64,000 nt of DNA from a candidate division WWE3 bacterium (GTDB lineage Bacteria; Patescibacteriota; WWE3; 2-01-FULL-39-13): NCBI GenBank assembly GCA_943354835.1, contig CALRDH010000003.1:104496-168495 (forward strand), written 5' to 3'. The notes beneath the pieces are model-generated. The model had not been told where the DNA came from. It did not search any database and worked only from the letters and a program-made list of their open reading frames with translations. Positions 26,880 through 64,000 of the stretch are shown here, piece by piece (the stretch's first letter is position 1; each line of letters opens with the position of its first letter). Position numbers and translations under genes: made by a program.

Positions 26880-27911
26880 ATGCCAAAAACGTGGCCCTTA
26901 ATTTCGATAATTACACCAACTTTAAATGCAGGGAAAGTTTTAGAAACAGAACTTGAATCAATCCGCTCCCAAGATTACCCACAAGATAAAATCGAAATAA
27001 TAATTGCAGATGGCGGATCAACCGATTCCACTTTAGAAATTGCTAAAAAATATAACGCAAAAGTTTTTCCGAATCCATTAAAAACTGGCGAAGCTGGAAA
27101 AGCAGTCGCTGTTAAAAAAGCCGAGGGTAAATATATTGCTTTGATTGATTCTGACAATATCCTTCCGGATAATTCCTGGCTAAAAGAAATGATCGAGCCG
27201 TTAGAACAAAACCCAGACATCGCCGGATCAGAGCCTTGGGCTTTCATATATAGAAAAGAAGCTGGCTTTATTGAAAGATATTGTGCACTTATTGGTGCAA
27301 ACGATCCCATTGTTTTATGGTACAAAAATTATGACCGTGTAAATACTGTTTCCGAAAAGTGGACGGAATCAAACGTAATACAAAATGACATCGGAAGTTA
27401 TATAGCGGTAACCTTAAAAAAAGGTCACGAAGTCCCAACAATCGGTGCGAACGGAACAATTTTTAGATCAGACTTTTTACAAAGCGCAAATATTGGTGAC
27501 TATCTTTTCGATATCGACATTCTTCTGTCCGAAGTAAAAAGATTGGGTGAAGTGAAATTCGCGAAAGTTAAAACTAGCATTATTCATACGTACTGCGAAT
27601 CAAATATTAAAAAATTCGCACGCAAACAAAAAAGGCGCGTTCTCGATTACTATTTTTATCAATCTCTTGGACTTAGAAATACCGATTGGGAATCTAAAGG
27701 TTCGAAATACGCAATCTTAAAATTCGCTGTAGAAACAGCTCTAATATTTCCAAATGTTTTCTACGCAATTAAGGGGCTTCTAAAAAAACCAGACATTGCG
27801 TGGTTTTTTCATCCAATTGCTTGTCTGATAACACTATACCAATACGCAATCGGAACCATTTCATTTAAAATAAATAAAGCTACAATTAAAAGAGATGATT
27901 GGAAACAGTAA
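26880..27911 (+). CDS. Glycosyltransferase family 2
   Basis: LISIITPTLNAGKVLE...IIADGGSTDST...IALIDSDNI. Confidence 0.8.
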   Translation: MPKTWPLISIITPTLNAGKVLETELESIRSQDYPQDKIEIIIADGGSTDSTLEIAKKYNAKVFPNPLKTGEAGKAVAVKKAEGKYIALIDSDNILPDNSWLKEMIEPLEQNPDIAGSEPWAFIYRKEAGFIERYCALIGANDPIVLWYKNYDRVNTVSEKWTESNVIQNDIGSYIAVTLKKGHEVPTIGANGTIFRSDFLQSANIGDYLFDIDILLSEVKRLGEVKFAKVKTSIIHTYCESNIKKFARKQKRRVLDYYFYQSLGLRNTDWESKGSKYAILKFAVETALIFPNVFYAIKGLLKKPDIAWFFHPIACLITLYQYAIGTISFKINKATIKRDDWKQ

Positions 27912-30288
27912 AAAATTCTCAATTTGGAATATAGAAATTTACATATTTGCGTTGAAAGTTGCATTAGCCTTTATTGCATTAATTCTATTTACGAGAAGAA
28001 CCTGGGCTGGCGAAGACGCGTTTATATTTTTCAGATATATAGACAATCTAGTAAATGGGAGGGGGTTAGTTTTTAATATTGGCGAAAGAGTTGAAGGATT
28101 TACTTCTCCTTTATGGATATTCTTTCTATCATCAATAAGCCTATTTACATCTCTCGGACTTAGACAAATCGCTATAATCGCAGGACTGTTTTTATCAACC
28201 TTGTCTATTTTGATAATTTTGTTCTTTGACAGTAGTAAAAAATTGTTTTTCCCAATCGGTGTAATTTTACTAATCACAAATTCTGCATTTAGGGATTTTG
28301 CGACAAGTGGATTTGAGACTTCACTAACGTATTTATTATTAACAACTATTGCGATTTTGGTGAAAAAGAATCAAATATGGAAACATCCAATTCAATTAGG
28401 GATTTTATCATCACTTTTGGTTCTAAATAGACCAGAAGCCTTACTGTTTGTTTTCTATATTTTCTTGGTTATCTGTATAAATGGCTTAATATTAATACGT
28501 ACTAAAGTAGTTTCACTTGATACCCTCATTAGCAAATTAATTTACTTTTCATTCCCTGTAATTTTAATAGTAGGCGGTTATCAAATCTTTCGAATGGGAT
28601 ATTTCGCATCTATCCTACCAAATACATTTTATGCAAAAAAAGGTGGCGAATTCTATATGTCGCAAGGACTTTTTTATCTCAAAGATTTCGTTTCTGCATA
28701 TTGGTTTTCATTCGCAATTATATTTCTTGGAATTACAATCTTGACAAGATCAAAGCTCCCTTTTAAACTCTCAAAAATATTTTTTGACGGCGAAGTTCAC
28801 GTATTTGTAATGTCACTGCTTCCACTTTTATACGTTTTATATTCTGGAGGAGACTACATGCACGGAAGATCATTATTAATGACTTTTTTATTAATTTGCA
28901 TCGCGATAAATAGTGTTTTTGAGAAATATACAAAACCTTCATTTTTATCCCTTTTTTACTCGGCAGTTTCTATCGCAATTATTTGTCTAATATCTGTTTC
29001 ACAAATCCCAATCACATCTGTTGCAGGTAAACAAATAAATGGAATTAAAGACGAAAGATTTCACTTCGGGTTTGGATATAACAAAGGAAAATTTAAAGAA
29101 TATTTTGATGAAAGAATCACAGGGCAATTTAACTGGGCAAACAGAGGCTATTATTATAAAGAATTAAGTGATGCGCTAAGAATACCAATTAGCGTTGTTA
29201 TGGGTAACATCGGGTTTTTTGGATACGCAGCAGAAGAAAATGTTAATGTGATGGGAAGTTCACTTTCTGACCCATATCTTTCAAGATTCCCTGTCAGAAT
29301 ACGTGGAACGATTGGACATGAAGGCGAAGCTCACAACGACTATGTATTTTCGAGGAAACCTAATTTCGCGTATACACCATATGTAATTTGGAATGAAGCT
29401 GGGCATTTTAAATATGATAAAGCAGAACATTCAACGGCAATTGTAGGAGATGGTGACGGAAGTTTTATACCAGTTTTTGATTTATCAAATAAGGAATTTT
29501 TGCAAAAATTTTCAACGCTCACAGGTCATGATGTAAAAGTAGAGCTGGACGCATCAATAATGAAATATTTACAAGATGTATCAAAACAAAAACCACTAAA
29601 AAACTTCGAAGATACAACTGATTTTTTTGGATTTTTAGCTACATATTGGGCACCATATGCAAATCAAAAAGATAAAACTTTTTTTGACGACATGAGAAAT
29701 AACTTATGGGGAAATCATGTCTTAAGCGAATATGAGGTTTTTAATTTAAAGCTAAAGAATAAGTCAGAAAGTTTCTTGTCCCATGCAACATCAAAACTCA
29801 ATTCAAAATCTTTTGTGGAAAATATGAAATTTGCCATTCAAAATATCAGCAAAAACACAAACGATTACGACTACATACTATCAATCAATGATGAAAAAGA
29901 TTTAACCCAAAAAGGAGTAACAACATCAGACAGCATTATTTTCGACAAAGTTTATGGAATATTTTATGTTACACCAGGACCCCAAATAGGAGATATTAAG
30001 TTAAGCGTGAATCCAGAAAAATATACTAGGGAAAGTTATGTTTTAAAGATAATCTACAGAATTGCAAAATTTGAAAATTCATTGTCTGTTGCTTGTGAAA
30101 AATGTTCTGATAAACGAATAATATATAAACACGATCCAACTATTTTAGGTGAAAGTCAAGATAAAGTTGAAATACATCTAGACATTACAAAGGAAATATC
30201 AGAAACTGGAGAAATTACTGTACAATTAGATAGACCACAAGGCCCAGCAGCTTTTGAAGTAGGAGTAATTTCAATTGAGTTATTTTAA
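27895..30288 (+). CDS. Large polytopic membrane protein, GT-C-like glycosyltransferase candidate with a ~400-aa C-terminal soluble domain
   Basis: 797 aa. The N-terminal ~400 aa has about 11 TM helices, with an acidic motif AGEDAFIFFRY in the first loop. Confidence 0.45.
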   Translation: MIGNSKKFSIWNIEIYIFALKVALAFIALILFTRRTWAGEDAFIFFRYIDNLVNGRGLVFNIGERVEGFTSPLWIFFLSSISLFTSLGLRQIAIIAGLFLSTLSILIILFFDSSKKLFFPIGVILLITNSAFRDFATSGFETSLTYLLLTTIAILVKKNQIWKHPIQLGILSSLLVLNRPEALLFVFYIFLVICINGLILIRTKVVSLDTLISKLIYFSFPVILIVGGYQIFRMGYFASILPNTFYAKKGGEFYMSQGLFYLKDFVSAYWFSFAIIFLGITILTRSKLPFKLSKIFFDGEVHVFVMSLLPLLYVLYSGGDYMHGRSLLMTFLLICIAINSVFEKYTKPSFLSLFYSAVSIAIICLISVSQIPITSVAGKQINGIKDERFHFGFGYNKGKFKEYFDERITGQFNWANRGYYYKELSDALRIPISVVMGNIGFFGYAAEENVNVMGSSLSDPYLSRFPVRIRGTIGHEGEAHNDYVFSRKPNFAYTPYVIWNEAGHFKYDKAEHSTAIVGDGDGSFIPVFDLSNKEFLQKFSTLTGHDVKVELDASIMKYLQDVSKQKPLKNFEDTTDFFGFLATYWAPYANQKDKTFFDDMRNNLWGNHVLSEYEVFNLKLKNKSESFLSHATSKLNSKSFVENMKFAIQNISKNTNDYDYILSINDEKDLTQKGVTTSDSIIFDKVYGIFYVTPGPQIGDIKLSVNPEKYTRESYVLKIIYRIAKFENSLSVACEKCSDKRIIYKHDPTILGESQDKVEIHLDITKEISETGEITVQLDRPQGPAAFEVGVISIELF

Positions 30289-30296
30289 TAATTAAT

Positions 30297-31043
30297 ATGC
30301 CAAGTGAATTTGCGGTTTCACTATCAGTGGGCACACAGGAGCTAGCACCACAAGTAAATAAAATTATAGAAATCTGCGAACAAAGGGACGTAAGCCCAAT
30401 TGTTATTCTCGCAGGACATTTAACACTTGACCCGCTTGGATCGGGGAATGCAATTCAAACAGCCCAACAGTATCCATATGGAGTTGTTGTCCCAGTATTA
30501 GCAGAAGAAGGAACTTTTTCAATGGCATATTTAAAAGGTTGGAAAACAGGGGCAGAATTGGCCCAAAATGTAATCAGTCTTGATGCAGATGGATCGCATG
30601 ATCCAATGCAAATCTTAGAATTTATCGATGCACTAAGAACTGGTTCCAAAGCCGTACTAGGAAGTAGAAATATGCCAGGATCAAAAAATAATTATCCATT
30701 ACAACGAAGAATAATATCTGGATTAGGCACTATGGTCGCAAGTACAATATTAAATCCAACTGGTCCAAGATTAACTGATTTTACTAGTGAATTCGAGGGA
30801 ATAAATTCGCAAACGATAAAAGAAATGTTCCATCAAACGCCAGCAAACTCATGGATAAGTGCAACACATGGTCCATATCACTTACAAAACACAGAGTTAA
30901 GAATGAGGTTATTACAAACAGGAATACAAATAGATGAATTACCAATAGAATATGGGACTAATCGTATAGGTAAAAAACTAAAAATGGATTACCTATTCAA
31001 AGCTTTATATGGATTCACACTCCTTATAAAGAACAATATTTAA
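30297..31043 (+). CDS. GT2-like glycosyltransferase (polyprenol-phosphate sugar synthase-like), atypical N-terminus
   Basis: ...VISLDADGSHDP...AVLGSRNMPGS...RIISGLGTMVAS resembles the DPM1/ArnC catalytic core. Confidence 0.5.
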   Translation: MPSEFAVSLSVGTQELAPQVNKIIEICEQRDVSPIVILAGHLTLDPLGSGNAIQTAQQYPYGVVVPVLAEEGTFSMAYLKGWKTGAELAQNVISLDADGSHDPMQILEFIDALRTGSKAVLGSRNMPGSKNNYPLQRRIISGLGTMVASTILNPTGPRLTDFTSEFEGINSQTIKEMFHQTPANSWISATHGPYHLQNTELRMRLLQTGIQIDELPIEYGTNRIGKKLKMDYLFKALYGFTLLIKNNI

Positions 31044-31092
31044 ATTTAGAGTTGTGATTTTTGTTAGATTTTATTATAGTAAAGGAACGATT

Positions 31093-32031: not shown

Positions 32032-32032
32032 G

Positions 32033-32527: not shown

Positions 32528-32545
32528 AAGACAAGTTTACAACAT

Positions 32546-33391: not shown

Positions 33392-33465
33392 AATAGCGTA
33401 GTATTAACACATTGAATTCAAAAATCAAAAAAACTAAGCACATCATTCTATAACAATCACAGTAT

Positions 33466-35341: not shown

Positions 35342-36205
35342 ATGACAAAAGTTAAAGTGATTGATCTTCAAATCAAAGGGACTAGAATCCGTCGTGATGT
35401 TATTGACTTAGTAACAAGATCCCGCGATGGTCATATTCCATCTGCACAATCAATGGTAGAAATTTTATCCGTCCTTTATTATCACATTCTCAACGTAGAC
35501 CCGAAAAACCCAAATAAACCTGATAGAGATAGATTTATACTTAGTAAAGGGCATGGATGTGCTTCACTATATGCAGTATTGGCAGACTTGGGGTTTTTCC
35601 CACGATCTGAATTAGAAAAATACGCAACAATGAGTGGTATATTGGGTGGTCACCCAGAAATGCAAAAAGTTCCTGGAATCGAAGTTTCAACAGGATCACT
35701 CGGGCATGGATTTCCAATGGGGGTTGGCATGGCAATGTCAGCAAAACTAAATAATCAAAAGCACAAAGTATATTGCGTAGTTGGCGATGGCGAATGCAAC
35801 GAAGGAACTATATGGGAAGCTGCTAATATCTCCGCACATTTTAAACTTGATAACCTTGTTGTGATTGTTGATCACAACAAGCAACAAGCTAGTGGTGACG
35901 TTTTTGAAATAATGAATCCACACCTACTTTCTGAAAAGTGGAAATCATTTGGATGGGAAACTATTGAGTTAGATGGACACAACATAGAAAGCCTACATAA
36001 AGCTTTTACATCACTTCCATTTAAATCTGGAAAACCTTCAGCAATAATTGCAAATACCATAAAAGGAAAAGGCATTTCATTTATGGAAAACGAAAGAAGA
36101 TGGCATACAGCAATTCCAAACGAAGAAGAATTTAAATTAGCAATGGCAGAACTAGATGAACAAGAAAAACAACTAACGAAGATAAAAGGAGGCAGTAAAA
36201 AATGA
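35342..36205 (+). CDS. Transketolase, N-terminal (ThDP/PP-domain) subunit of a split enzyme
   Basis: ...ILSKGHGCASLYAVLADLGF...GSLGHGFPMGVGMA...VVGDGECNEGTIWEAANISAHFKLDNLVVIVDHNKQQ. Confidence 0.85.
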   Translation: MTKVKVIDLQIKGTRIRRDVIDLVTRSRDGHIPSAQSMVEILSVLYYHILNVDPKNPNKPDRDRFILSKGHGCASLYAVLADLGFFPRSELEKYATMSGILGGHPEMQKVPGIEVSTGSLGHGFPMGVGMAMSAKLNNQKHKVYCVVGDGECNEGTIWEAANISAHFKLDNLVVIVDHNKQQASGDVFEIMNPHLLSEKWKSFGWETIELDGHNIESLHKAFTSLPFKSGKPSAIIANTIKGKGISFMENERRWHTAIPNEEEFKLAMAELDEQEKQLTKIKGGSKK

Positions 36206-37134
36206 GAAAAGCATTTGTGGAAGCGATATCAGAGATCCTAGACACTAACGACAAAGCATTGCTTCTGATTGGAGATATTGGTGCATACCTTCTAAAAGAT
36301 ATTAGTGCAAAACATCCAAATAGAGTAATAAACATGGGCATTGCAGAAGCTGGAATGATGAGTGCAGCAGTAGGTCTTGCACTAGAAGGGTGGATTCCAT
36401 TTGTTTATACAATAACGCCGTTTGTAACCGCAAGAGCGTACGATCAAATTAGAGCGGGTGTTGGATATCATGAAGCCAATGTAAAAATAGTTGGTATCGG
36501 AAGTGGCCTTTCATATAGTGCACTTGGTGGAACACACCATTCAATAGAAGACATAGCAATGATGAGATCAATACCTGGAATGACAATCATTTCCCCATCA
36601 GATGGACCAGAAACAATACAGGCAACAAAAGCTACAGCAAATCATTTTGGACCTGTTTACCTTAGACTAATGTTAAATGTTGAACCATTAGCTATTGATA
36701 TTAAACGCAAAGAATTCAAAATAGGACAAGCTAAAAAACTTTCGAATGGCAAAGATTTAACAATAATTGCAACTGGAGAACTCGTGAAAGAAGCTTTGGA
36801 CGTTTCCGCTATGTTGCAAAAAGATAAAATATACGCAAGCATAATAAATATGAGCACGATTAAACCAATCGATAAAAAAACTATCGAATCTGAAGTTATA
36901 TCCGCACCTATTATATTCACACTCGAAGAGCACAATGTTATTGGTGGATTAGGATCAGGAGTAGCAGAAGTTATTTCTGAATCAAAGCTAAAATCAAAAC
37001 CACGATTAGTGCGACTCGGAATTCAAGATAAATTCACAAATAAATATGGCCATAAAAGCGAACTCTACGAATATCTGAATCTTGACGCGAAAAGTTTATA
37101 TAAAAGGGTTAAAAAGGAAATTAAAAATGGATAA
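36202..37134 (+). CDS. Transketolase, C-terminal (Pyr-domain + C-terminal domain) subunit
   Basis: ...INMGIAEAGMMSAAVGLALEGWIPFVYTITPFVTARAYDQIR.... 4-nt overlap with the N-terminal subunit gene. Confidence 0.85.
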   Translation: MRKAFVEAISEILDTNDKALLLIGDIGAYLLKDISAKHPNRVINMGIAEAGMMSAAVGLALEGWIPFVYTITPFVTARAYDQIRAGVGYHEANVKIVGIGSGLSYSALGGTHHSIEDIAMMRSIPGMTIISPSDGPETIQATKATANHFGPVYLRLMLNVEPLAIDIKRKEFKIGQAKKLSNGKDLTIIATGELVKEALDVSAMLQKDKIYASIINMSTIKPIDKKTIESEVISAPIIFTLEEHNVIGGLGSGVAEVISESKLKSKPRLVRLGIQDKFTNKYGHKSELYEYLNLDAKSLYKRVKKEIKNG

Positions 37135-42069: not shown

Positions 42070-42831
42070 TCACTTGTTTTTGATTTTTTGAGCTACTATA
42101 AATATGGATGTCCCTATTGGTAAATTAATAAAGTTAAGTAAATAGTTTTCGAAATACATAACTTTAGTTAATATTTTATTTATAATAGGATTAGCTTTAC
42201 TAACATCATCTTCGGCTTTTTTTGACGATAATAAATAGTACATTTTATTTACTATTTTATAAATAACTAATAGTGGGAAAAGTAAAAATACCCTGTAGCT
42301 ACCTTTTATTATTTTATAGTTATGCGATTCTAAGTCTTCAATCAGCTCATTTAGCATAAACCTTTTTTTTACATGCCAACTAACATCATGATTTGAAAAT
42401 AAAAATGGCAAAGCGGCTGTGTTGATAATTAGATATCCATTTAGTCTAGTGCATCTTGTGAATTCATTTAGCGCTAAAATGTATTCTTTTGGCGAAAGGC
42501 ACGCCAATACATCCATACAGCATATACAGTCAAAAGATGAGTTTTTATAAGGTAGCTTTGATATGTTTGCTTTCAAAACGTCAGTAATTCCTCTTTGTTT
42601 GCAAAATTGAATTGCTACATCTGATGCATCAAATCCGCATACATTATAATTTTCAGATCTTAAAAATTGCAGGTTTTCTCCAGTTCCACACCCTGCATCA
42701 AGAATTACTTTAACATTCGTAGATTTTATATATGAGATTAATAAGTTTCTTAGTCCAAGGTACCACCAATGGCTATGTTCATTTTCATACATATTTTCGT
42801 AAACTTTATTTTCTAGTTGCAATTTTTTCAC
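42070..42831 (-). CDS. Class I SAM-dependent methyltransferase
   Basis: VKVILDAGCGTGENLQFL...VCGFDASDVAIQ. Confidence 0.75.
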   Translation of the reverse strand: MKKLQLENKVYENMYENEHSHWWYLGLRNLLISYIKSTNVKVILDAGCGTGENLQFLRSENYNVCGFDASDVAIQFCKQRGITDVLKANISKLPYKNSSFDCICCMDVLACLSPKEYILALNEFTRCTRLNGYLIINTAALPFLFSNHDVSWHVKKRFMLNELIEDLESHNYKIIKGSYRVFLLFPLLVIYKIVNKMYYLLSSKKAEDDVSKANPIINKILTKVMYFENYLLNFINLPIGTSIFIVAQKIKNK

Positions 42832-50269: not shown

Positions 50270-50271
50270 TT

Positions 50272-53560: not shown

Positions 53561-53564
53561 CAAT

Positions 53565-54791
53565 ATGCAAAAATTAATAAAAGTTCTTTATATTGTAAAC
53601 TTTTATGGAAGTCCACCTTTAAATTATTTTGAAAAGTATACGAAGGAATTGAATTTAGCAGAGATATACATACTTAAATTACCAGCGGTCAGACTAACAA
53701 AAGGAAGGCTTTTTGTTGATGCATTCATTATTGACGTAAATGGTAAAAAGTATGAAACAAATGTCGATATAAATTTTCCGTTTCCACCAGCGGTAATATT
53801 TCTTACACAATATATTCTTAATTTCATATTGCTATTCACGCTCCTTAAAAAAATTAAAGTGAATAAATTCGACATATGTATCGGAGAAACGTCATTTGGT
53901 AGTGCATGTGCATACCTCCTAAAAAAGTTACAAAAGGTTAATTATTCAATTTACATGAACGGTGATATTTTGCCAAATAGAAAAAGTAACGAAACATATT
54001 ATTTTAATAATAAAATAGCTGATTCAATAATGATAAGCGGACAAATGTTGCTAAGAAAATTAGGCAGTAAATGCGATCTAATTTGGTATGTTACCCATAA
54101 GATACATGAGTGGGATATCAAAAATGGTATAAATACTAAGAATTATTTTTTTGCGGAAGCTGCTACCATTGACTTCAAAGAATTCCAAAATTATTCAAAA
54201 ATTCCAAAACAAAAAAATGTACTTGGATATATCGGCAGACTAGACGAATTTGCTGGGCTAGACATTTCGATTGAAAGCATAAAGTATATAAAAAAGAATA
54301 TTTCTGATATAAGATTCGATATTGTAGGAGGAGGAAGCGCATCTGTAGAGCATTATAAAGAAATAGCTAAATCACATGGGGTTTTAGACAACGTAAAATT
54401 CTATGGATATATACCTGAAATGAGCGACGCCTTTGATATACTATCAAAGGCGTCGCTAGGTATGGCTTTATACAAACCAGATAAATCAAATGTCTCTCTT
54501 GCTACAGATGTTTCGAAAGTTAAAGAATATATAAAAGTCGGTCTACCCGTGGTAATCACAAAAGGTGGACCAGCTGTTGAAAAGGAAATTATAAAATATA
54601 ATTCAGGTATAGTTGTAGATTATAACGCTAAAAAAATTGCGGAAGCAATTGTTAACATTTTAGATGAAAACAATAAATCCGAATATATGGAGCTCCAAGG
54701 AGGGTTGAAAAACCATGCGAAAAACTTAGATTATAAAAAACATTTCAAATATGTTTGGGAACAAATTCTAAAATTTTATGAGAATTCTTAA
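53565..54791 (+). CDS. Glycosyltransferase family 4 (GT-B), paralog of the preceding gene
   Basis: ...VLGYIGRLDEFAGLDISI...FDIVGGG...GLPVVITKG... is collinear with 52409..53560. Confidence 0.7.
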   Translation: MQKLIKVLYIVNFYGSPPLNYFEKYTKELNLAEIYILKLPAVRLTKGRLFVDAFIIDVNGKKYETNVDINFPFPPAVIFLTQYILNFILLFTLLKKIKVNKFDICIGETSFGSACAYLLKKLQKVNYSIYMNGDILPNRKSNETYYFNNKIADSIMISGQMLLRKLGSKCDLIWYVTHKIHEWDIKNGINTKNYFFAEAATIDFKEFQNYSKIPKQKNVLGYIGRLDEFAGLDISIESIKYIKKNISDIRFDIVGGGSASVEHYKEIAKSHGVLDNVKFYGYIPEMSDAFDILSKASLGMALYKPDKSNVSLATDVSKVKEYIKVGLPVVITKGGPAVEKEIIKYNSGIVVDYNAKKIAEAIVNILDENNKSEYMELQGGLKNHAKNLDYKKHFKYVWEQILKFYENS

Positions 54792-57700
54792 TCTACTAGT
54801 AAATTTATATGCAAAGGAAAAATTAAAAAGAATAGCTGATTCTAAATTATTTTATCTAATTTCTCTAGGCTTATTAGGTTTAACACCACTATTTTGGTTT
54901 TATAAGGACTTTATTATTCGCCCTGAAGAACTTAGCTACATAAACTATTCATTTTTATTTGAAAAATATCTATATGCTTGGTCTACTCATACATCAAATG
55001 GATTACCAACTACTTACTCAAATCAACTAATACTTTTTCCAGTTGGTTTGTTGTATGCATTTTTCGAAAAAATACAAATCTCGGAGCAACTTGCGCAAAA
55101 GATAATCCTTGTATTTTTCTACGAATCAACACTGATTTCTTCATACTTACTTTTTTTGAAACTATCAAAAAGTAACAAGTCTTCATTTTTGTCATCTATC
55201 TTTTATTCATTTAATTTCTATACTCTTTCCATCCCTTTTTATACAGCAAAGATGATACAGATGGCTATATTCCCAATAATTTTTCAAACTACATTAAATT
55301 ATATGGAAACAAAAAGGATTAAATATATCTTTCTTAATTTTATAACTCTATTTATATTTCAAGGTATCTTTTCCAACATCGCTAATGCCACATCTACAAT
55401 GATAGCTTACCTATTGGCAATTTCTTATTATCTTTATATAACTCGACCAAAAAGCAATCCGATAAAACATATTAAACACTTAACGACGTATTTCCTGGCA
55501 ATACTTCCAATATTTGTAAACATTGGTTTAATCTTCTATTACTCCGTATTGAATACTAATCTGTACATAAAATTAAGAGAAACAAACGGATTCGCACATA
55601 CCTTTCTATCAACATCAATTGCAAAAATATTCATAATATTTCATGGAGCATGGTGGGAAGACTCTGAAGTGTACAATACATTATTCACGCATTTTAACAA
55701 TCCCTTCGTAATTATTTCGTCGGTTGGACTTTTCGCATTTCTTGTCTTTGGATTCCTAACTATAGATAAAAAGAAGCAAAATAGAAAATCTTACGTTTTT
55801 TGGTTTTTCTTTTTCTGTATTTTCATATTTTTTGTAAAAGGAATAAATCAACCTTTTGGCACAGTATATAAATTGATGTTCTTTACTGTCCCTGGATTTT
55901 TTGTTTTCCGCGAACCATGGGCAAAATTCACTCCATTACTAATTTTTTCAGGGAGTATAGTTTTTCTCTACGTTTTCGAATCGATTTCAAAATATAGATA
56001 TTTGCCAAAACTTATATTCATAATGATTTTACTAATCGCTTTACCATTTCTGACTGGAAATGCTATAGATCATTCTGGATCTGGATATTCAGACACCGAT
56101 ATCTTAATTCCTAGTTACTGGAAGGACTTTCATGAATGGTCAAAAAACAAGGAAATTCAAAACCTTAATATTTTCGCAACGCCAGTAATATACGGAACCC
56201 AAGAATATTATAATTGGCAAGGTTATGAAAAGGGAAATTTAACAGGGTCATTCGTATACACTTATCTTTATAGCAATTCAATTAACAAACTAGATGATCC
56301 AACTGGCATACACTACGAGTATCTAAAAACATACAGCCCAAATTTATTTCAAATATTCAACGTCGATTATGTTTTAAGTCAAAATGATGTTGTTAACGTT
56401 GCCGCGAACAAGGACTATTCGATTAAAAATCTTTCGAATGAAAATATTATAGAAAAAGAACCATTTCTGAAATTTGGCAAATTAGCATTATACAATCTAC
56501 AACCAAAATATAAATCTCAAAGGATATACATACCACAAAATGTATACAAATATAGTAGTAACGATGAAGCAATATTTCCAACGATATTAAATATATTTCC
56601 AGAAGAAACATCACACGCATATATTTCAATACATGAAAAGGATAACTCTTACGATATAATATCTAATTCCGCAGTCACTGTAGCAAATAAAGTCAATTCG
56701 AATATACAGACGTTAGGGCAATGGGATAACGGATGGACCTGGCCTATAGAAGCAAGCGTGTCCCCAAAATCCACGAAATATAAACTAGTAAGATTCTCTG
56801 AATATATAGAACAAAAAACAACTCAAAATCAGCTAGATAAAATTGACCTTGACCTTTGGTATGCAGGAAAACGGATTGAGGAAATCCAGAGATTTGATTT
56901 AAATTCACTTGAAAAAAAGGACCTGCTTGAAGACTTCACAAAGAAAATATCATACATATCAGAAACTTTACGAAACTTTCCAAAAAACCATCAAGACGAG
57001 AAATACTGGGGAACTGTAAAAAAATCTCAAATGTATATTAAAAGGTTTATACAAACAGGAACTTTAGCGAAAACCATATATCTGGAGAAAAATCTTAACG
57101 AGTTAAATTCTTTTCAGTCATGGATAAATGAAAAAGTAAACCCGTATTGTAAAAAGCAATGTTACGAAATCAAAGCGACAGAGACAGGAACTCACCAAAT
57201 TTTTATCAAAAATTCAGAACTAAGAAAGATTTGGCCGAACAAAGATGAACTAAATAATTACCATGACGGAATTATTACCTTAATAGTAAAAGCAAATGAA
57301 TTTAATTCAATCTCTCCACAAATACTATCGGTTGAACCTTTATATATTGAAGATATAAATTCTCCAATAAAAATTGGGCAAGTAAATTTGCAAAAAGATG
57401 AAATATACTACATCGATCTTTCATTTTTAGATGATATAAACATCGTAAATAAGGGGTTATGGCAGACGCCAGATATTAATAAACAATCAGACTATGAAAT
57501 TGAATTTACACCTCTATCAGTTGTAAACGGATATACATCTGAAGACGGCGAGGAGGTAAGAATATGGAACAATACAATAAAATTCAAAGAACTTTCCGGA
57601 TGGGTGCCAAATACCCCATATAAGCTATCATTCAAATACAAAATCAATGATGGCAGACTTGGAATTTTAATCTCGGAAAGCATATACGATATATCGAACA

Positions 57701-58728
57701 TATCAGAAGGAAAAATTGGCAATAACTTTGAGAAAATAGATAATTCATCCTTAGTACAAAAAACCGCACTGAAAGAGTTAATCGATGCAAAATGCAATTA
57801 CGATTTAGATAATGAAAACTGCTGGATTAAATATGAAAAGACTATTAATCCAAATAGTTTATCAGTTGGGGCATCGATATATTTCTATGCAACTCCTGAT
57901 TCTAATAACTTCTCGAAAGTTTTGGTTAGCGAGATAAAGATAGAACCGATAACGGACCTAAAACCAATTCTCGTGCTAAATAAAGATGTAAATACGAGTA
58001 TCACTAGACCAGACATAAAATATAATATGATAAATCCAACTAAATATTCTATAGAAATCCGAAATGCAGTATCACCATATATTATTGTGTTTAGTCAAAC
58101 TTTTCATAAAGGTTGGAAACTTTATCTTAACAATCAAGAAATTGGCAAAACACAACATGAAATTGCAAACGGATTTGCAAACGCTTGGCAAATAAGCCCA
58201 GGCGAAGTAGGAAACCAAAGTAATTACACATTAACACTAGAGTATTATCCTCAAAGAATACTTTACTATACATGGTACGCGACAATATTAGTATTTATAG
58301 CATCAATCCTTTATGTATTATTTGAAATTTTATTAAATAAAAATTATTCTTTAACAGAATCAAATCAAAAAGCACCATCTTCACAAAAACCCCAACTACT
58401 TGGATTATTAACAAAAAGGGTAAAGAAACTTAAAAAACCAATCTTTATTGGGGGCATCATAACTATATTGTTTTATGAATTAAGTAGCTTGCAAACAATA
58501 TCCGATTTTGTAATTTTCCTAATAATAATATTTGCAATAATAGTTATAAAATTAGCTAAGATTAGTAGTAAAAATTTAATCTATACATCACTTTCACTTA
58601 TCATAATTATGATAATTTTAATATTATTTAAGAATGATACCTATTCTGAAATCTTTGCTATTTTCGCACTGACCTTAATTGCGGTAACCTCATTTATAGA
58701 ATTTACTAGAAAGAATATTGATGACTGA
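54778..58728 (+). CDS. Giant (1316 aa) polytopic membrane protein: N-terminal ~430-aa multi-TM GT-C-like domain, ~750-aa extracytoplasmic domain, C-terminal TM bundle (AftD/DUF3367-like architecture)
   Basis: Hydrophobicity layout read from the translation: about 12 N-terminal TM helices, a long soluble middle, and about 4-5 C-terminal TM helices (…YYTWYATILVFIASILYVLF…, …IFLIIIFAIIVI…, …LIIIMIILILF…). Confidence 0.5.
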   Translation: MRILNLLVNLYAKEKLKRIADSKLFYLISLGLLGLTPLFWFYKDFIIRPEELSYINYSFLFEKYLYAWSTHTSNGLPTTYSNQLILFPVGLLYAFFEKIQISEQLAQKIILVFFYESTLISSYLLFLKLSKSNKSSFLSSIFYSFNFYTLSIPFYTAKMIQMAIFPIIFQTTLNYMETKRIKYIFLNFITLFIFQGIFSNIANATSTMIAYLLAISYYLYITRPKSNPIKHIKHLTTYFLAILPIFVNIGLIFYYSVLNTNLYIKLRETNGFAHTFLSTSIAKIFIIFHGAWWEDSEVYNTLFTHFNNPFVIISSVGLFAFLVFGFLTIDKKKQNRKSYVFWFFFFCIFIFFVKGINQPFGTVYKLMFFTVPGFFVFREPWAKFTPLLIFSGSIVFLYVFESISKYRYLPKLIFIMILLIALPFLTGNAIDHSGSGYSDTDILIPSYWKDFHEWSKNKEIQNLNIFATPVIYGTQEYYNWQGYEKGNLTGSFVYTYLYSNSINKLDDPTGIHYEYLKTYSPNLFQIFNVDYVLSQNDVVNVAANKDYSIKNLSNENIIEKEPFLKFGKLALYNLQPKYKSQRIYIPQNVYKYSSNDEAIFPTILNIFPEETSHAYISIHEKDNSYDIISNSAVTVANKVNSNIQTLGQWDNGWTWPIEASVSPKSTKYKLVRFSEYIEQKTTQNQLDKIDLDLWYAGKRIEEIQRFDLNSLEKKDLLEDFTKKISYISETLRNFPKNHQDEKYWGTVKKSQMYIKRFIQTGTLAKTIYLEKNLNELNSFQSWINEKVNPYCKKQCYEIKATETGTHQIFIKNSELRKIWPNKDELNNYHDGIITLIVKANEFNSISPQILSVEPLYIEDINSPIKIGQVNLQKDEIYYIDLSFLDDINIVNKGLWQTPDINKQSDYEIEFTPLSVVNGYTSEDGEEVRIWNNTIKFKELSGWVPNTPYKLSFKYKINDGRLGILISESIYDISNISEGKIGNNFEKIDNSSLVQKTALKELIDAKCNYDLDNENCWIKYEKTINPNSLSVGASIYFYATPDSNNFSKVLVSEIKIEPITDLKPILVLNKDVNTSITRPDIKYNMINPTKYSIEIRNAVSPYIIVFSQTFHKGWKLYLNNQEIGKTQHEIANGFANAWQISPGEVGNQSNYTLTLEYYPQRILYYTWYATILVFIASILYVLFEILLNKNYSLTESNQKAPSSQKPQLLGLLTKRVKKLKKPIFIGGIITILFYELSSLQTISDFVIFLIIIFAIIVIKLAKISSKNLIYTSLSLIIIMIILILFKNDTYSEIFAIFALTLIAVTSFIEFTRKNIDD

Positions 58729-60487
58729 TTTATTGATATACTCAAATTTCTTTGGTGATAACATCGGAAATATTATTAATGTTTCAAATGCAAACACACA
58801 TGTAGCGATTAATATTATTTTACTTTTTGTGGTATTACTAATTATCTTTTATTATCGCAAATTGCAAATTCTTAAAAAGAACTATCTAATTGGATTATCT
58901 CTTGTTTCGATTCTAATTCTCTCCCCTCTTCGCATTCGTTATTCTATGGAATGGCCGAATCATGCTAATTGGGCTTGGATTATTTTTTATTTTGCTTCCT
59001 TGTTGCCTTTCTTGAAAAATCCTGTTTCTTGCAAGTTTAGATATCCACTTTTGGCTGGAGCTTTCTTTTTTGTGGCATTAATAGAAAATGCATATCATGG
59101 AGTTGAGCTACTATTTATGTCAATTCCTATATTTCTTTTTTCGATTTATTTTCACAGCGCAGAGATATTCAAAAAAGAAGATCTACATAAAGTCTTAAAA
59201 AGATTTCTAGTATTTAGCATTATTGTTCTTTCCGCAATTTATTACCAATACTATCTATTTAGTAAACCAATTCAATATGGAAATAATGCTTTAACAACAG
59301 TCATCTCCTCTGCCACCCGCTCCCCTTCTGACCGCTTTGCTTTTTCTGCAAGACCATGGAATTATTTGATTCCGGATATTGATCATCCTGTTTTGGGTGA
59401 TTTAGCCGTACGTGCAAATTATTGGATCTGGCAACACCCTCCTTATTATTTAACTGAACCGTTTTTCCCGAAGGAACATACTTTATTTTTGGGCTATACA
59501 CTTATGGCTTTATCAATTTATACAATTTGGCAAACTTTTGTTAAAAAAAATATTACAGGAGACCAAAAATTTAATGTCACCTTCTTTTTGATTATTGCCG
59601 TTTCTGCTTTTATTTTCAGCATGCCACCATACATTGCCATAAATAATTTTAAAATCTACTTCCCTTCTCACTTTATATACGACTTCTTGCCTCAATTTAG
59701 AGCATACGCAAGATATGGCGTTTTCGTATTTATAGGAAATATAGTAATCGCAATGATCGGATTAAACTATTTGATTTCTAAATCATTCTTAAACAAACCA
59801 AAACAAAAACTTAAACAAAATTTGCTGATAATCGCGATCTCCGCACTCGCAATTTTTGAATTTATACCCGGAAAACATTTAATCTCTATCAAGCCAACTC
59901 CACCATACGAATGGCTTCGTGAACAAGGCACCATGCAACAAACACCAATTAAATATATAGAAATCCCGGAAAGGGCCGATTACACCGACCATCTATATAC
60001 ATACGATGCAAATATAGAAATAATAAACCCATACCTTGTAACAAGAGGCGATGCAAAACTTTTGGAAGACATAATATTAAAGCGTGAAAATTCTCAAGAA
60101 CAATTATTCTGCACTCTTTCTAACAAACTTGATGTCAAATACCTCTTCTATCACGAAAAGGAGTTAAATAGACAAAAGTATGTTAAAGAATTCATGGAAA
60201 CTGGAGTCGTTACACCTCAATTAAAAGTCGCCATGGCGGAAAGTTGGGGTTCACCAGTATTTGGAAATCATGTGCCTAAAACTGACGAAGATCTGGCAAA
60301 AGAACAAATTACTAAAAATATGAAAAACTTTTTATTAAACGATCCTAAACTAACTTTAATAAAAGAATATACAAATGATGAAATAATTCAAAGTAGACCA
60401 AACAAGAACTTCTCTGCTGATAAATTTGATGCCGTTACAATATTTGAAATCAATAGAGACTACTGCAGCTCACTTATTAACCCTTAA
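58718..60487 (+). CDS. Polytopic membrane protein (about 10 TM) with a ~200-aa C-terminal soluble domain; GT-C-like/polymerase candidate
   Basis: 589 aa with multiple TM helices through ~370 aa, then a hydrophilic tail. Overlaps the preceding gene by 11 nt. Confidence 0.4.
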   Translation: MMTDLLIYSNFFGDNIGNIINVSNANTHVAINIILLFVVLLIIFYYRKLQILKKNYLIGLSLVSILILSPLRIRYSMEWPNHANWAWIIFYFASLLPFLKNPVSCKFRYPLLAGAFFFVALIENAYHGVELLFMSIPIFLFSIYFHSAEIFKKEDLHKVLKRFLVFSIIVLSAIYYQYYLFSKPIQYGNNALTTVISSATRSPSDRFAFSARPWNYLIPDIDHPVLGDLAVRANYWIWQHPPYYLTEPFFPKEHTLFLGYTLMALSIYTIWQTFVKKNITGDQKFNVTFFLIIAVSAFIFSMPPYIAINNFKIYFPSHFIYDFLPQFRAYARYGVFVFIGNIVIAMIGLNYLISKSFLNKPKQKLKQNLLIIAISALAIFEFIPGKHLISIKPTPPYEWLREQGTMQQTPIKYIEIPERADYTDHLYTYDANIEIINPYLVTRGDAKLLEDIILKRENSQEQLFCTLSNKLDVKYLFYHEKELNRQKYVKEFMETGVVTPQLKVAMAESWGSPVFGNHVPKTDEDLAKEQITKNMKNFLLNDPKLTLIKEYTNDEIIQSRPNKNFSADKFDAVTIFEINRDYCSSLINP

Positions 60488-62577
60488 TCAAAAACCGACA
60501 TCATGTATTCGCCACTTATTAAGAAGTTTTTGCCGTGTTGGTAGCTTGGGCCGACTAAGGTTACCTTTTCAACCAGATTTTTCTTGCCTAGAATAATCAT
60601 CTTTGGAGCATTCATGATAAGCGTATCTCTGTCATTAAAAACATTAACATTACATGTTCTTAAGAAATACTCGCCATCTTTCTTCTCAAAAACATCGCAA
60701 TAAAAACCGACTAAAGGCAGATCAACACTTGAATCGATCCAAACTGAAGCATTTTCAAATAGCATACGATTTGAAGCAAGTTCTGAAAGGAATGCTAAAT
60801 CATAATTATGTGAATTGCTTTTATGATACAAATTTGCCGAAATTAAAGCCGAAGAAAAAGAAGCAACAAGAACTATAAAATAAACCAAAGCATTATTTAT
60901 TCCAACCTTAAATTTAATAAACTTAACGACAAAAGATAATATTACTAAAACAACAAAACACACAAACCATTTTGTTGAAATATAGACTCCGGGAACAAAT
61001 ACATTTATTAAATTTAAAACAATTGCGGTCGAAATTAAGGTCCTTTGACTTGTATTAAACTTCTTAAAAATTCCAAATAATAATATAGTGCTTCCAAAAT
61101 AAAATATTAATGAAAAAATTCTTCCCGTGAATGAAAAATTTCCAAAAATATATCTAAACAAATCAAATAGTACATAATTTTTTTCTGAATAAATTATTAA
61201 CATTTCATCATATGTAACGGGAGACATCATATAGAAAAGCGGTAATAAAAATGACAATCCAATAAACGAATAAATTAAAAAAGAATAAAACGAAGATAAA
61301 CTAAATGACGGCAGTTTTAAATCAATATTTTTGAAGTGATACGTTACATAAGCACATGCGATCACGACATAAATCCAAAAGAATTCAGATTTATAGGAAT
61401 ACATAACTCCGCCTACTAAAAATGAAATTATACCTGCAAAAAAACCAATTGAAATAAGATTCGGGGTCTTTGCCGAAACCGATCTATATAACATATAGAG
61501 AAGCAAAGCCCAAAACAAAATAAAACAAATTAATGAAAAAACACCGGTTTCGGCAAAGACCTCAAGCCATAAATTGTGAAGTGGCAATTTGTAACTTAAG
61601 GCCGCTTTATCTATATAGTAATATGCGTTTGCCCACTTTGATGTATGAAAGTAAGCATGAAATGAATTCGTTCCTATTCCAAACAAAAAGTTTTCAAGTC
61701 CAACATTAATTCCAACTTTCATCAAAAACAGATGTGAGAAAAATGAAACTGATCGATATAAAAACGACTGCCTAATTACATCCTGAAATAGATACAAAGT
61801 AACCAAAGGTAAAGTAACAAAAGCCGTTGCGATTCCAATCCAAGAAAAGGTTCCAATTTTAAATTTAATTTTTCTATAAATTCCTACATATATTGCCAAA
61901 AAAGATACGAGTCCAAACCCAAATCCTATGGTTGCACTTCTTGAGCTTGTAAAATAAAGTGAAATTAAAATTAAAACAATCAAAATAGAATCAATATATT
62001 TTTCTGCTTTCTTTTTACCAGATAATAAACTCGAAAGAACTACAAAAAATAAAGACGATAAATATGCTGCAAAATGATTTACATCCCAAAACACAGAACC
62101 ATATCTGGTTGGATATCCAGGTACAGGCCAAACTCCTCCAGTTGCAATACCTTTTGTTTCTTGCAAATACATTTGATAAATTAAAAACGCAAATACAAAT
62201 AAAAATGTGTATTTATAAATATCTATAAGTTTTTTTATACTTCCCTTCTGCTCATCAATGTAAAATTTAAACGTAGGATATGAAAACACAACGGCAACTT
62301 GAAACGCAATCATTCTAGCTGAATTCATAACATCTTTACTTTGAATTAAACTCAATACTTGAAAAAGTACAATTGTAAAAAGAAACACAAACAGTTTATC
62401 TTTCACTAAGTCCTTATAATTTTTTATAAAATAAAAAACTCCAAATAATGAAACCAAAACCAAAATAAATTTAGAGATTACTAAATCTGGATCAAAAATT
62501 GAAAACATTTCCTTATGCGTAAAGGGGATTGAGATTACTAACAAATAAATTAAATATTTAGAAATTTTATTTAACAT
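60484..62577 (-). CDS. O-antigen ligase/Wzy_C-like polytopic membrane protein (polymerase or ligase)
   Basis: 697 aa, more than 12 TM helices. ...YFTSSRSATIGFGFGLVSFLAIYV... resembles the Wzy_C/O-antigen-ligase SR(G/S)A motif region. Confidence 0.5.
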   Translation of the reverse strand: MLNKISKYLIYLLVISIPFTHKEMFSIFDPDLVISKFILVLVSLFGVFYFIKNYKDLVKDKLFVFLFTIVLFQVLSLIQSKDVMNSARMIAFQVAVVFSYPTFKFYIDEQKGSIKKLIDIYKYTFLFVFAFLIYQMYLQETKGIATGGVWPVPGYPTRYGSVFWDVNHFAAYLSSLFFVVLSSLLSGKKKAEKYIDSILIVLILISLYFTSSRSATIGFGFGLVSFLAIYVGIYRKIKFKIGTFSWIGIATAFVTLPLVTLYLFQDVIRQSFLYRSVSFFSHLFLMKVGINVGLENFLFGIGTNSFHAYFHTSKWANAYYYIDKAALSYKLPLHNLWLEVFAETGVFSLICFILFWALLLYMLYRSVSAKTPNLISIGFFAGIISFLVGGVMYSYKSEFFWIYVVIACAYVTYHFKNIDLKLPSFSLSSFYSFLIYSFIGLSFLLPLFYMMSPVTYDEMLIIYSEKNYVLFDLFRYIFGNFSFTGRIFSLIFYFGSTILLFGIFKKFNTSQRTLISTAIVLNLINVFVPGVYISTKWFVCFVVLVILSFVVKFIKFKVGINNALVYFIVLVASFSSALISANLYHKSNSHNYDLAFLSELASNRMLFENASVWIDSSVDLPLVGFYCDVFEKKDGEYFLRTCNVNVFNDRDTLIMNAPKMIILGKKNLVEKVTLVGPSYQHGKNFLISGEYMMSVFD

Positions 62578-64000
62578 AAAGAGGATCTTCTATAGGGTCT
62601 GGCGGATACCCATAATTCGTAAGCTTTGACGATACATCAGCGATTTCTACTGTTACCTTATCAAACTCTATCCTTTCTAGAATTGTTAATTTTTCGCCCA
62701 ATATCAACTTATCAATAAATGTCATACGTCTTAACATTAGCGTTTCAAGTTGAGATCTCAATAACTCTACTCTAGAAACTGATTGTAGCAAAACCCAACC
62801 TCCAGACGTACCTTTAATATCTAAAACTAGTGGAGCCTTAATCGTGCCTCCATTATTTTGCAATTTATAATAGACCGAATCTGGAACCAAAAAGCTATAG
62901 TTTTCTAAAGGCCCGGCATCGTCTATCATTCTTAAAATAGTTGGCTCATCAACTGACTTAACAACATGATCGCTATAAAAATGCAACACAGGAGGTTCAA
63001 TTCTACTGAAATATAATTTTCGATCTGGATAGTCTTCAATTGGATAATTCCTATTATTTATATCTACCAATGCAACCTTATCTTTATTAAAATCCGGATA
63101 ATAAACTTTATCTCGGATAATTACTACATAGAAAATGGCAACTAAAGAAGCGCTAAATACCAGTAAAATTCTTAAATATTTATTATCAAACCTTATTTCA
63201 CTTCTTAAAAATGAATTAAGAATATATATAGATCTTTCTATAAAGCGTGCAGATAAAATGGCAATGAATGGATAGATAGGCATTATATACCACTGCAATT
63301 TATCTTTTGAAATTGAGAAGAAAATTAGAACAAAGAAAGTAGAAATCAGAAGAAGATAATACTGCCTTCTATCCTTATCAAAAAATGGAAGCAAAATCAA
63401 AGCACCAAAAAGTGGCAAAATCCAAATTCTAAATGAAGTCCTTATTACATCTAAAAACCACAAAACTGGTCTCTCGTGACCAAAACCCGAAAGTCCACGT
63501 CCAATCATGTGATCAATAAAATATGTATCCCAAAAATCATTTCCATACTTAATTAATGAATAAATGTGCCAAGGTCCAGCTATTAATAAAATCCCAGATC
63601 CCATAATTAAAAATGGTTTTATATAACTCTTAAAATTTTTAATATCTAAAATTAACAAATAAATGAAAATTATTGGCAGTGGTATAAAACCAATAATTCC
63701 CTTTGTCATAACAGCAAAGCCGACAAAAAGTCCTGTTATAAACCATTTCTTTGAATAAAAGAAATAAATTGACAACACTATAAAAAATGTAGCTGTAACA
63801 TCTAACATTCCATTTCGTGAATAGTACAAATAATGAGCGGTTGATAACAAAATTAACGATGCAGTAATACCTGTTAGTTTGTTGTAAAGCTTATTTCCAA
63901 GTTTGTACGTTGCGATAATTCCAAGTAAACCGAAAATTGCTGAAATTATTCTTGCACCAAATGAATTAAATCCTGTAAGTTTAAAAGCCAAAGCAGTTAA
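62567..64000 (-). CDS. ArnT/PMT-family GT-C glycosyltransferase (polyprenol-phosphate sugar-dependent), 5' end beyond the window
   Basis: ...RIISAIFGLLGIIATYKLGNKLYNKLTGITASLILLSTAHYLYYSRNGMLDVTATFFIVLSIYFFY... is the typical ArnT/PMT first-loop region. The frame is open to base 64000 (the track start is a TTG), so the N-terminus is missing. Confidence 0.65.
   Translation of the reverse strand, partial: LTALAFKLTGFNSFGARIISAIFGLLGIIATYKLGNKLYNKLTGITASLILLSTAHYLYYSRNGMLDVTATFFIVLSIYFFYSKKWFITGLFVGFAVMTKGIIGFIPLPIIFIYLLILDIKNFKSYIKPFLIMGSGILLIAGPWHIYSLIKYGNDFWDTYFIDHMIGRGLSGFGHERPVLWFLDVIRTSFRIWILPLFGALILLPFFDKDRRQYYLLLISTFFVLIFFSISKDKLQWYIMPIYPFIAILSARFIERSIYILNSFLRSEIRFDNKYLRILLVFSASLVAIFYVVIIRDKVYYPDFNKDKVALVDINNRNYPIEDYPDRKLYFSRIEPPVLHFYSDHVVKSVDEPTILRMIDDAGPLENYSFLVPDSVYYKLQNNGGTIKAPLVLDIKGTSGGWVLLQSVSRVELLRSQLETLMLRRMTFIDKLILGEKLTILERIEFDKVTVEIADVSSKLTNYGYPPDPIEDPLYVK

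Follow-up and report, generated by a model that had tools for sequence, protein, structure and literature searches.

What does a bacterium with a minute genome build with an array of very large membrane proteins that resemble sugar transferases? Members of the Candidate Phyla Radiation (CPR, or Patescibacteria) combine very small genomes with a life attached to other cells, and almost nothing is established about their envelope chemistry; full-text literature searches on GT-C enzymes or O-antigen ligases in this group, under either of its names, found no relevant paper. The question is raised by a 64,000-nucleotide stretch of a candidate division WWE3 genome (assembly GCA_943354835.1, contig CALRDH010000003.1, positions 104,496 to 168,495; hereafter the window), in which a set of giant polytopic proteins of the glycosyltransferase (GT) C type is encoded among sugar-handling genes. 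A sequence-only reading of this DNA had proposed that GT-C-like enzymes here elaborate a glycopolymer or glycoprotein outside the membrane, and this view is supported by homology or fold, by conserved residues and by the pairing of GT2 with GT-C genes. Our answer, to which we give roughly three chances in four, is that the genes form one surface glycan cluster in which a Wzx/Wzy-type route is combined with GT-C enzymes working as multi-component transmembrane glycosylation systems.

Eight GT-C-superfamily domains in one locus

The glycan cluster measures about 50 kb and runs as a single cell-surface biosynthesis cluster from about 13.6 kb of the window to 64 kb and beyond. Six GT-C-A-type domains are distributed over proteins of 610, 797, 1316 and 589 amino acids (aa), a YfhO-like protein and the PMT_2 half of a fusion protein, and two Wzy_C polymerase/ligase-type domains bring the total of GT-C-superfamily domains to eight. 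All open reading frames (ORFs) singled out by the sequence-only reading are real, five of them as it had drawn them, while the YfhO-like gene proved to be split and the last gene is truncated by the end of the window. Present are ORFs at 27895-30288 (plus strand, 797 aa), 54778-58728 (plus strand, 1316 aa) and 58718-60487 (plus strand, 589 aa, TTG start), and on the minus strand at 60484-62577 (697 aa) and 62567-63991, the latter continuing past the window end; each of the five is rich in hydrophobic 19-mers in a Kyte-Doolittle scan. Since the DNA is AT-rich (GC content about 30-35% across the cluster region) and stop codons are frequent, ORFs of 589-1316 codons lie beyond chance, and homologues were found for all three proteins searched (1316, 589 and 797 aa). 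Predicted-structure evidence covers the 1316-aa and 589-aa proteins, and the remaining ORFs of the window were annotated by Pfam and NCBIfam profile scans. The 1316-, 589- and 697-aa genes and the 1012-aa gene of the fusion are tightly packed, with overlaps of 4-14 nt, behind two genes for cytoplasmic GT4 glycosyltransferases of the GT-B fold (52409-54791, plus strand; Pfam Glycos_transf_1), the second of which shares its last 14 nt with the beginning of the 1316-aa gene.

A divergent AftD-like enzyme

AftD, a cell-wall enzyme of mycobacteria, uses a decaprenyl-phospho-arabinofuranose (DPA) donor and makes alpha-(1->3)-arabinofuranose (Araf) branches. The 1316-aa protein (54778-58728, plus strand) is an AftD-like GT-C-A glycosyltransferase, as judged from a family profile compared with AftD chains and from its fold and layout. 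An N-terminal transmembrane (TM) domain (residues ~1-426) is followed by a soluble region (~430-1157) composed of an alpha/beta GT-C domain (430-660), a five-helix bundle (667-786) and beta-sandwiches resembling carbohydrate-binding modules (CBMs; 795-1157), after which the chain re-enters the membrane (1158-1189) and ends in a bundle of three to four hydrophobic helices (~1222-1312). This order of parts agrees with that published for AftD, namely a TM domain, a long periplasmic region, a single re-entry helix and a small C-terminal helical bundle. The sequence-only reading had recognized an AftD-like layout with a TM domain, a periplasmic domain of ~750 aa and a C-terminal TM bundle, and the layout found here agrees with it.

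The protein belongs to a very rare subfamily: a search of 5.8 billion clustered proteins yielded 20 homologues, of which one carries the name Patescibacteria. Taken alone it has no convincing match in Pfam, NCBIfam or the PDB, where the single-sequence search gave only a chance-level 0.13. The 18-sequence family profile, on the other hand, matches the M. abscessus AftD chains 6w98/6wbx over the N-terminal membrane domain (E=8.5e-10), with a second short match at the motif IPxYWxDxxxW that opens the soluble domain, and Pfam PF11847 is matched by 6 of the 18 relatives (best 3.7e-16). Both N-terminal GT-C homology and the overall fold and layout of the AftD family were thus found. Five essential residues of AftD (K39, D41, E251, K361 and D474 in M. 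abscessus numbering) were compared. First-loop position 51 holds an acidic residue (Glu or Asp) in each of the 18 sequences and, when the alignment is extended, falls within one residue of the site expected for AftD D41, making E51 the putative catalytic residue; in addition, W292 is aligned with W272 of AftD, a residue 100% conserved there. Among the features that set the protein apart from AftD (PDB 6w98/6wbx; PF11847) are a structure-based identity of about 9% and its CPR host, the AftD structure paper having surveyed homologues only across Actinobacteria.

The five-helix bundle (residues 661-786, window 56758-57135) gives a weak DUF5667 match below the gathering score (E=3.3e-5). It forms an insertion that separates the soluble GT-C domain from the CBM-like beta-sandwiches, and has no counterpart in the description of AftD with which it was compared.

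A profile-to-profile comparison (hhalign) aligned the membrane-proximal beta module and re-entry helix of the 1316-aa family (57988-58320) with the C-terminal module of the YfhO-like protein (42831-43199) at a probability of 85.8% (E=5.4e-6), and BLASTP between the 1316-aa protein and YfhO-like C-terminal modules was not significant (E=5.8). The profile result hints at a module common to AftD-like and YfhO-type enzymes.

The order of a GT4 gene followed by an AftD-like gene is also found in another CPR contig (locus L070). This contig (8001-14554) and a further one (L069, 2300-14827) encode shorter AftD-like paralogues of 746-815 aa, followed by proteins of 571-865 aa that have no Pfam match and then by a MurJ-type flippase and a PMT_2 gene, so that arrays of large unannotated proteins beside AftD-like genes appear to recur in CPR lineages.

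An AftB-like enzyme coupled to a GT2 gene

AftB, likewise a mycobacterial cell-wall enzyme, is a retaining beta-(1->2)-arabinofuranosyltransferase of the GT-C-A type (PDB 9dlf/9dlh). The 797-aa protein (27895-30288, plus strand) is an AftB-like GT-C-A glycosyltransferase according to phmmer against the PDB and the NCBIfam model NF041481. Its TM core (residues ~14-370) is followed by an extracytoplasmic domain of about 430 aa at the C-terminus. Residues 14-335 align with residues 37-380 of chain 9dlf_C, from the cryo-EM structure of AftB, with E=1.5e-23. The NCBIfam AftB model is matched at E=3e-29 with 101.6 bits, short of its equivalog cut-off of 1050, and because of this difference the protein is to be regarded as an AftB homologue, not as an orthologue of proven specificity.

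In AftB, the catalytic nucleophile is D62, and activity also depends on R221 and R372 (PMC12041299). Residues E40-D41 of the 797-aa protein align with AftB D61-D62 (in W-I-A-D61-D62) and R325 aligns with R372, both directly, while R179 in an 'RPE' motif pairs with AftB R221-P-E only after a gapped stretch is re-registered by eye. Among 29 homologues neither R179 nor R325 varies, and D41 is kept in at least 90%. Homology to the AftB family core is present together with the Asp of the DD motif and the two Arg, and sequence conservation makes D41 the putative catalytic residue. The segment AGEDAFIFFRY, which the sequence-only reading had suggested inspecting for a first-loop acid, indeed aligns through its 'GED' with the catalytic DD motif of AftB. 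Relatives are numerous, and many of them carry the Pfam AftB_C domain or are labelled "arabinofuranosyltransferase" by the Joint Genome Institute (JGI); the C-terminal domain of the 797-aa protein itself has no Pfam match, AftB_C included.

In summary of the comparison, the two proteins share a TM core alignable over ~320 residues, the DD Asp (D41), the RPE Arg (R179), the Arg of GGDxMHGR (R325) and a C-terminal extracytoplasmic domain. They differ in that this last domain is ~130 residues longer than that of AftB, and in that the 797-aa gene is coupled to a GT2 gene and to GDP-sugar genes rather than to the DPA pathway.

An orphan GT-C, a Wzy_C-PMT_2 fusion and their conserved block

Downstream of the AftD-like gene lies that of a 589-aa orphan GT-C-A glycosyltransferase (58718-60487, plus strand), whose predicted structure has the GT-C-A membrane fold, with about ten TM helices followed by a C-terminal soluble domain of ~200 aa. 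Neither the single sequence nor the family profile found a match in the PDB. First-loop E78 is invariant in 22 homologues and belongs to a part of the model predicted with low confidence (73-81, predicted local distance difference test, pLDDT, <50); by its conservation it is the putative catalytic residue of the family. The closest species representative is a metagenome-assembled genome (MAG) of candidate division WWE3 with 82% aa identity, and remoter relatives occur in Saccharibacteria; the window is accordingly assigned to WWE3.

The 697-aa protein (60484-62577, minus strand), correctly described as O-antigen-ligase-like from the letters alone, is an O-antigen polymerase/ligase-type protein with a Wzy_C domain (PF04932) at residues 199-353 (50.2 bits against a cut-off of 31.7) and an NCBIfam TuaE match of 6.3e-7. 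It has extra C-terminal TM helices and a tail of ~110 aa; its C-terminal half has no Pfam match, and no PDB sequence match was found for the protein.

The last ORF (62567-64000, minus strand) comprises the C-terminal 474 codons of a Wzy_C-PMT_2 fusion, that is, a PMT_2/ArnT-like GT-C domain with a soluble tail. An ArnT/PMT-like gene had been proposed here, and this holds for the part seen (PMT_2, PF13231, 58 bits; NCBIfam ArnT NF009784, 4.9e-20, the best match of the PMT_2 half), whereas the gene as a whole extends into a Wzy_C domain. The N-terminal part is known from locus L001, whose sequence agrees with that of the window without a difference over 15,280 nt. There the full fusion (13847-16885) has 1012 aa, of which the window holds the C-terminal ~47%; the Wzy_C half and the PMT_2 first-loop motif 'DWDEAIY' lie beyond the window end. 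Over its full length the fusion matches Wzy_C at 233-386 (60.4 bits, cut-off 31.7) and PMT_2 at 529-681 (72.9 bits, cut-off 26.1). The 697-aa protein and the fusion thus match the model of the Wzy/WaaL/PglL-type Wzy_C proteins, and the fusion also that of the ArnT/PMT (GT83/GT39) enzymes, above gathering scores, the difference being that Wzy_C and PMT_2 domains are joined here in one 1012-aa polypeptide.

The fusion recurs at 53-54% identity in Saccharibacteria, with the 589-aa GT-C and a further Wzy_C protein again as neighbours. Indeed, a block of four genes, encoding the 589-aa GT-C, the 697-aa Wzy_C protein, the 1012-aa fusion and a 394-aa GT4, recurs, with gene order and strands unchanged, in three MAGs, one of WWE3 and two of Saccharibacteria, at aa identities of 40-58% (window 58718-64000; loci L003, L004 10001-18192 and L005 5453-13623). 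Saccharibacteria that possess the block can be cultivated on hosts.

GT2 partners and an additional PMT_2-like protein

Enzymes of the PgfS, ArnC, AglJ and PpgS types load a sugar onto polyprenyl phosphate, and it is these, together with dolichyl-phosphate hexose transferases, that are the best NCBIfam matches of two GT2 proteins of the cluster. The first (22492-23331, plus strand; Pfam Glycos_transf_2) is a polyprenyl-phosphate glycosyl synthase-like protein that matches PgfS at 6.7e-12 and ArnC at 1.1e-9, all under equivalog cut-offs, and its gene diverges from that of the 610-aa protein across 41 bp. The second (45287-46504, plus strand) is fused to a GtrA-type flippase domain (Glycos_transf_2 1.3e-13, GtrA_DPMS_TM 1.1e-12), matches ArnC at 3.5e-12 and PgfS at 6.1e-11, likewise under cut-offs, and its gene diverges from the YfhO-like gene across 96 bp. 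The end of a third GT2 gene (26880-27911, plus strand; Glycos_transf_2 E=5.6e-23), stop codon included, coincides over 17 nt with the beginning of the AftB-like gene, and the two form a translationally coupled GT-A/GT-C pair.

The 610-aa protein (20618-22450, minus strand), which lies outside both the gene list and the range of the sequence-only reading, combines a polytopic PMT_2-like N-terminal domain with C-terminal tetratricopeptide (TPR) repeats, the latter matched by Pfam and the former recognized through relatives. The N-terminal domain family is large (24,221 representatives at E<=1e-3), Pfam PMT_2 is matched by 8 of 15 relatives (best 6.6e-7), and the first-loop motif S98-D99-D100 that follows the first helix is invariant as SDD in the family. 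On these sequence features the protein is a probable further GT-C-A enzyme.

Adjacent GT2, GtrA-type flippase and GT-C components are therefore all present, as three GT2/GT-C pairs and one GT2-GtrA fusion. The order GT2 to AftB-like recurs in the WWE3 genome GCA_001773195.1. There a PMT_2 gene is followed by a conserved run of Wzx, GT2, GT2, a ferredoxin, a radical-SAM (S-adenosylmethionine) enzyme, GT2, the AftB-like gene and a gene for a ~250-aa protein, at 32-63% identity, and this run stands directly beside genes for GDP-mannose 4,6-dehydratase, an aminotransferase and an Fcl-like protein. A function for these pairings and blocks is supported by their recurrence in other CPR genomes.

Multi-component transmembrane glycosylation systems have been given a framework in a review (PMC8035078), whose examples CsbB/GtcA/YfhO, GtlA/GtlB, GacI-L and PgfS/PgfM resemble the present locus in that a GT2 synthase is encoded next to a GtrA-type flippase and a GT-C. 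The families to which the GT-C enzymes belong are likewise shared, being PMT_2, YfhO or without a Pfam domain. The locus differs from these Gram-positive systems in stacking several pairs and AftB/AftD-type enzymes in one place, in the fusion of GtrA to GT2, in the frameshift of its YfhO-type member and in that no genes for lipoteichoic acid or wall teichoic acid synthesis were seen in the window.

A proposed route of assembly

Two sets of enzymes are combined in this cluster. The Wzx/Wzy-type route would comprise initiation by a Bac_transf enzyme, extension by cytoplasmic GT2 and GT4 enzymes, export by the Wzx flippase and the two Wzy_C domains. The first of these components, a small polyprenyl-phosphate sugar-phosphate transferase (15665-16291, minus strand; PF02397, E=3.4e-57), likely starts the lipid-linked repeat unit, judging by its family. 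The flippase (19373-20644, plus strand) belongs to the Polysacc_synt family (PF13440/PF01943) with many TM segments predicted by scan, and its adjacency to a PMT_2 gene is kept in another WWE3 genome.

In the second set, adjacent GT2 enzymes on the inner side of the membrane would charge polyprenyl phosphate with sugar derived from nucleotide sugars, and the GtrA-type domain (fused to one GT2) or Wzx would flip the lipid-linked sugar. Each GT-C may then use a first-loop carboxylate, the candidates in four of them being D41, E51, E78 and D99/D100, and would transfer the sugar to a glycopolymer or glycoprotein that grows on the outer face, where the CBM-like beta-sandwiches of the AftD-like enzyme may hold the acceptor glycan. 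Homology or fold of each enzyme, conservation of key acidic and basic residues and gene pairing are observed directly, and from them we infer the type of donor, the topology, the direction of transfer and the cooperation on one product.

Several results weigh against this assignment of roles. The 1316-aa protein itself does not match PF11847 (GT-C_AftD) at E<=0.1, and AftD residues E251, K361 and D474 have no confident counterpart in it, so that of the five essential residues only the first-loop acid could be matched with some confidence. The N-terminal domain of the 610-aa protein has no direct match in Pfam or the PDB, a profile search of the PDB included, and hhalign found no significant similarity between its family and the PMT_2 half of the fusion (probability 0.6%). 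The GT2 at 26880 has no strong hydrophobic segment by scan, which weakens the role of a membrane-bound synthase of polyprenyl-phosphate sugars. Since the NCBIfam matches lie far below equivalog cut-offs, the specificities of the named enzymes are not transferable to these proteins, and the YfhO-like module may be dead because it is frameshifted in every assembly seen.

Acceptor, donor and gene decay

The acceptor might be mainly protein, in which case the GT-C and Wzy_C enzymes would O-glycosylate surface proteins (S-layer, pili, giant adhesins) as PMT/TMTC, PgfS/PgfM or PglL-type oligosaccharyltransferases do. This possibility is compatible with the polysaccharide reading, the two not being mutually exclusive. 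We consider a predominantly protein target doubtful, as both the homology to AftB and AftD and the presence of CBM-like domains speak for a glycan acceptor, the cluster contains a full Wzx/Wzy polymer gene set, and the matches to Pgf proteins are all weak and below cut-off.

The kinship of two enzymes with AftB and AftD raises a second possibility, that they are true arabinofuranosyl or other pentofuranosyl transferases using decaprenyl- or undecaprenyl-phospho-pentofuranose, as in mycobacteria and in the GT136 three-component systems, and assembling an arabinan-like polymer. We regard this as distinctly improbable. Neither the Pfam scan of the window ORFs nor the conserved neighbourhoods of relatives yielded a UbiA-type phosphoribosyltransferase, a DprE1/DprE2-type epimerase or a HAD phosphatase, and because of this (a matter of local context only) polyprenyl-phosphate hexose or deoxyhexose donors made by GT2 enzymes are favoured over decaprenyl-phospho-arabinose. 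The coupling of the AftB-like gene to a GT2 gene, and in GCA_001773195.1 its location beside genes for GDP-mannose dehydratase, an aminotransferase and a GDP-fucose-synthase-like protein, also point to hexose or 6-deoxyhexose donors. With the AftD identity at 9%, the NCBIfam AftB score at one-tenth of its cut-off and no DPA genes nearby, true orthology to AftB or AftD was rejected.

A third account, that part of the arsenal is decaying into pseudogenes or non-catalytic paralogues in a reduced genome, draws on the YfhO-like gene. A single intact gene at 42828-45190 had been proposed by the sequence-only reading; a similarity to YfhO is seen at the C-terminal end of the protein, but the gene is interrupted. 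The C-terminal 491 codons (42828-44303, minus strand), covering TM helices, a soluble domain of ~250 aa and a final TM segment, are YfhO/PgfM-like by Pfam YfhO and by NCBIfam PgfM1/PgfM2 C-terminal matches, and the N-terminal 213 codons were located by six-frame reading at 44549-45190 (minus strand). A continuous ORF of 787 aa is restored if the T6 run at 44558-44563 (minus strand) is lengthened by one T. Pfam YfhO (PF09586) is matched at 50.7 bits (cut-off 28.5), but only over profile positions 758-835, the last 78 of 835, and by the last ~77 residues of the protein, and this holds for the repaired 787-aa protein as well, for which no PDB sequence match was found. The same split, with identical DNA and T6 run, occurs in the ENA assembly ERZ27280224 and the Logan run ERR3719140, from different samples or runs. 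An assembly error was rejected on the ground of this identical T6 in separate assemblies, though these possibly derive from the same population, and the run may be either a fixed pseudogene or a phase-variable homopolymer.

The frameshift in all assemblies examined speaks for decay, as does the splitting of a CofD/YvcK-like gene (18347-19388). The other large genes, of 589-1316 codons in AT-rich DNA, are intact, and since intact ORFs go together with conserved first-loop carboxylates and with synteny at 40-58% identity between CPR phyla, purifying selection is indicated; decay as a general account is accordingly very improbable. That the proteins are transporters or unrelated membrane proteins was rejected by the fold and sequence results.

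Place of the cluster among known systems

The surface glycan reading thus preferred holds nothing new in kind, since the enzyme superfamily of every component is already known and the proposed mechanism is an established one. New are a very divergent AftD-type enzyme outside Actinobacteria, which extends this architecture beyond the phylum surveyed in the AftD structure paper, an uncharacterised GT-C-A family (589 aa), a conserved Wzy_C-PMT_2 fusion and the gathering of eight GT-C-superfamily domains in one locus of a reduced genome. A glycan locus of ~50 kb with that many domains suggests heavy investment in extracytoplasmic glycan elaboration.

A bolder view, speculative and in our estimate unlikely, is that WWE3 and Saccharibacteria possess a lineage-specific extracytoplasmic glycan-assembly machine with the 589-aa GT-C, Wzy_C, Wzy_C-PMT_2 and GT4 proteins as its core, extended in WWE3 by the rare AftD-like enzyme with its CBMs, which builds a complex branched cell-wall glycopolymer. 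If true, this polymer would be comparable in role to actinobacterial arabinogalactan or lipoarabinomannan, and possibly central to epibiotic surface biology.

Neighbouring genes

Pfam and NCBIfam scans placed the division and cell-wall genes MraZ, MraW, FtsI and MurA-like in the first 1-5.5 kb of the window. Within the cluster they identified DUF4012, GT4 and GT2 enzymes, an asparagine-synthase-like amidotransferase, several methyltransferases and short-chain dehydrogenase/reductase (SDR) enzymes, together with sugar-nucleotide genes for GDP-mannose 4,6-dehydratase, a GDP-fucose-synthase-like protein and an RfbH/DegT-type aminotransferase/dehydrase. Two pairs of thiamine diphosphate (ThDP)-dependent enzymes are encoded at 35342-37134 and 49304-51327 (a split transketolase-like pair and an E1 alpha/beta-like pair), and an RfbH-like enzyme dependent on pyridoxal or pyridoxamine phosphate (PLP/PMP) at 47267-48481 (NCBIfam 5.5e-61, under cut-off); on account of the two ThDP pairs and the RfbH-like enzyme, unusual branched-chain or dideoxy/amino sugars are suggested.

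A small ferredoxin and a B12-binding radical-SAM enzyme are encoded at ~24400-26364, between GT2 genes and the AftB-like gene, a position kept in another WWE3 genome (locus L067, 3912-6912), where the radical-SAM enzyme has 63% identity. Close by, a 167-aa membrane protein (26354-26857) has no Pfam match, and a 248-aa protein (30297-31043) none except a GT2 hint at 0.039.

A 1220-aa secreted protein rich in Gly, Thr and Ser, with Big_13 and fn3 domains, is encoded at 5664-11018, where the local GC content is 0.44 against ~0.33, and could be a target of glycosylation. Adjoining it are genes with KilA-N and Bro-N domains, which are typical of mobile or phage-derived DNA. Finally, the CofD/YvcK-like gene (minus strand), the second interrupted gene of the window, is divided into two overlapping ORFs of 239 and 122 aa, the frame shifting near an A5/TT stretch around 18685-18695.

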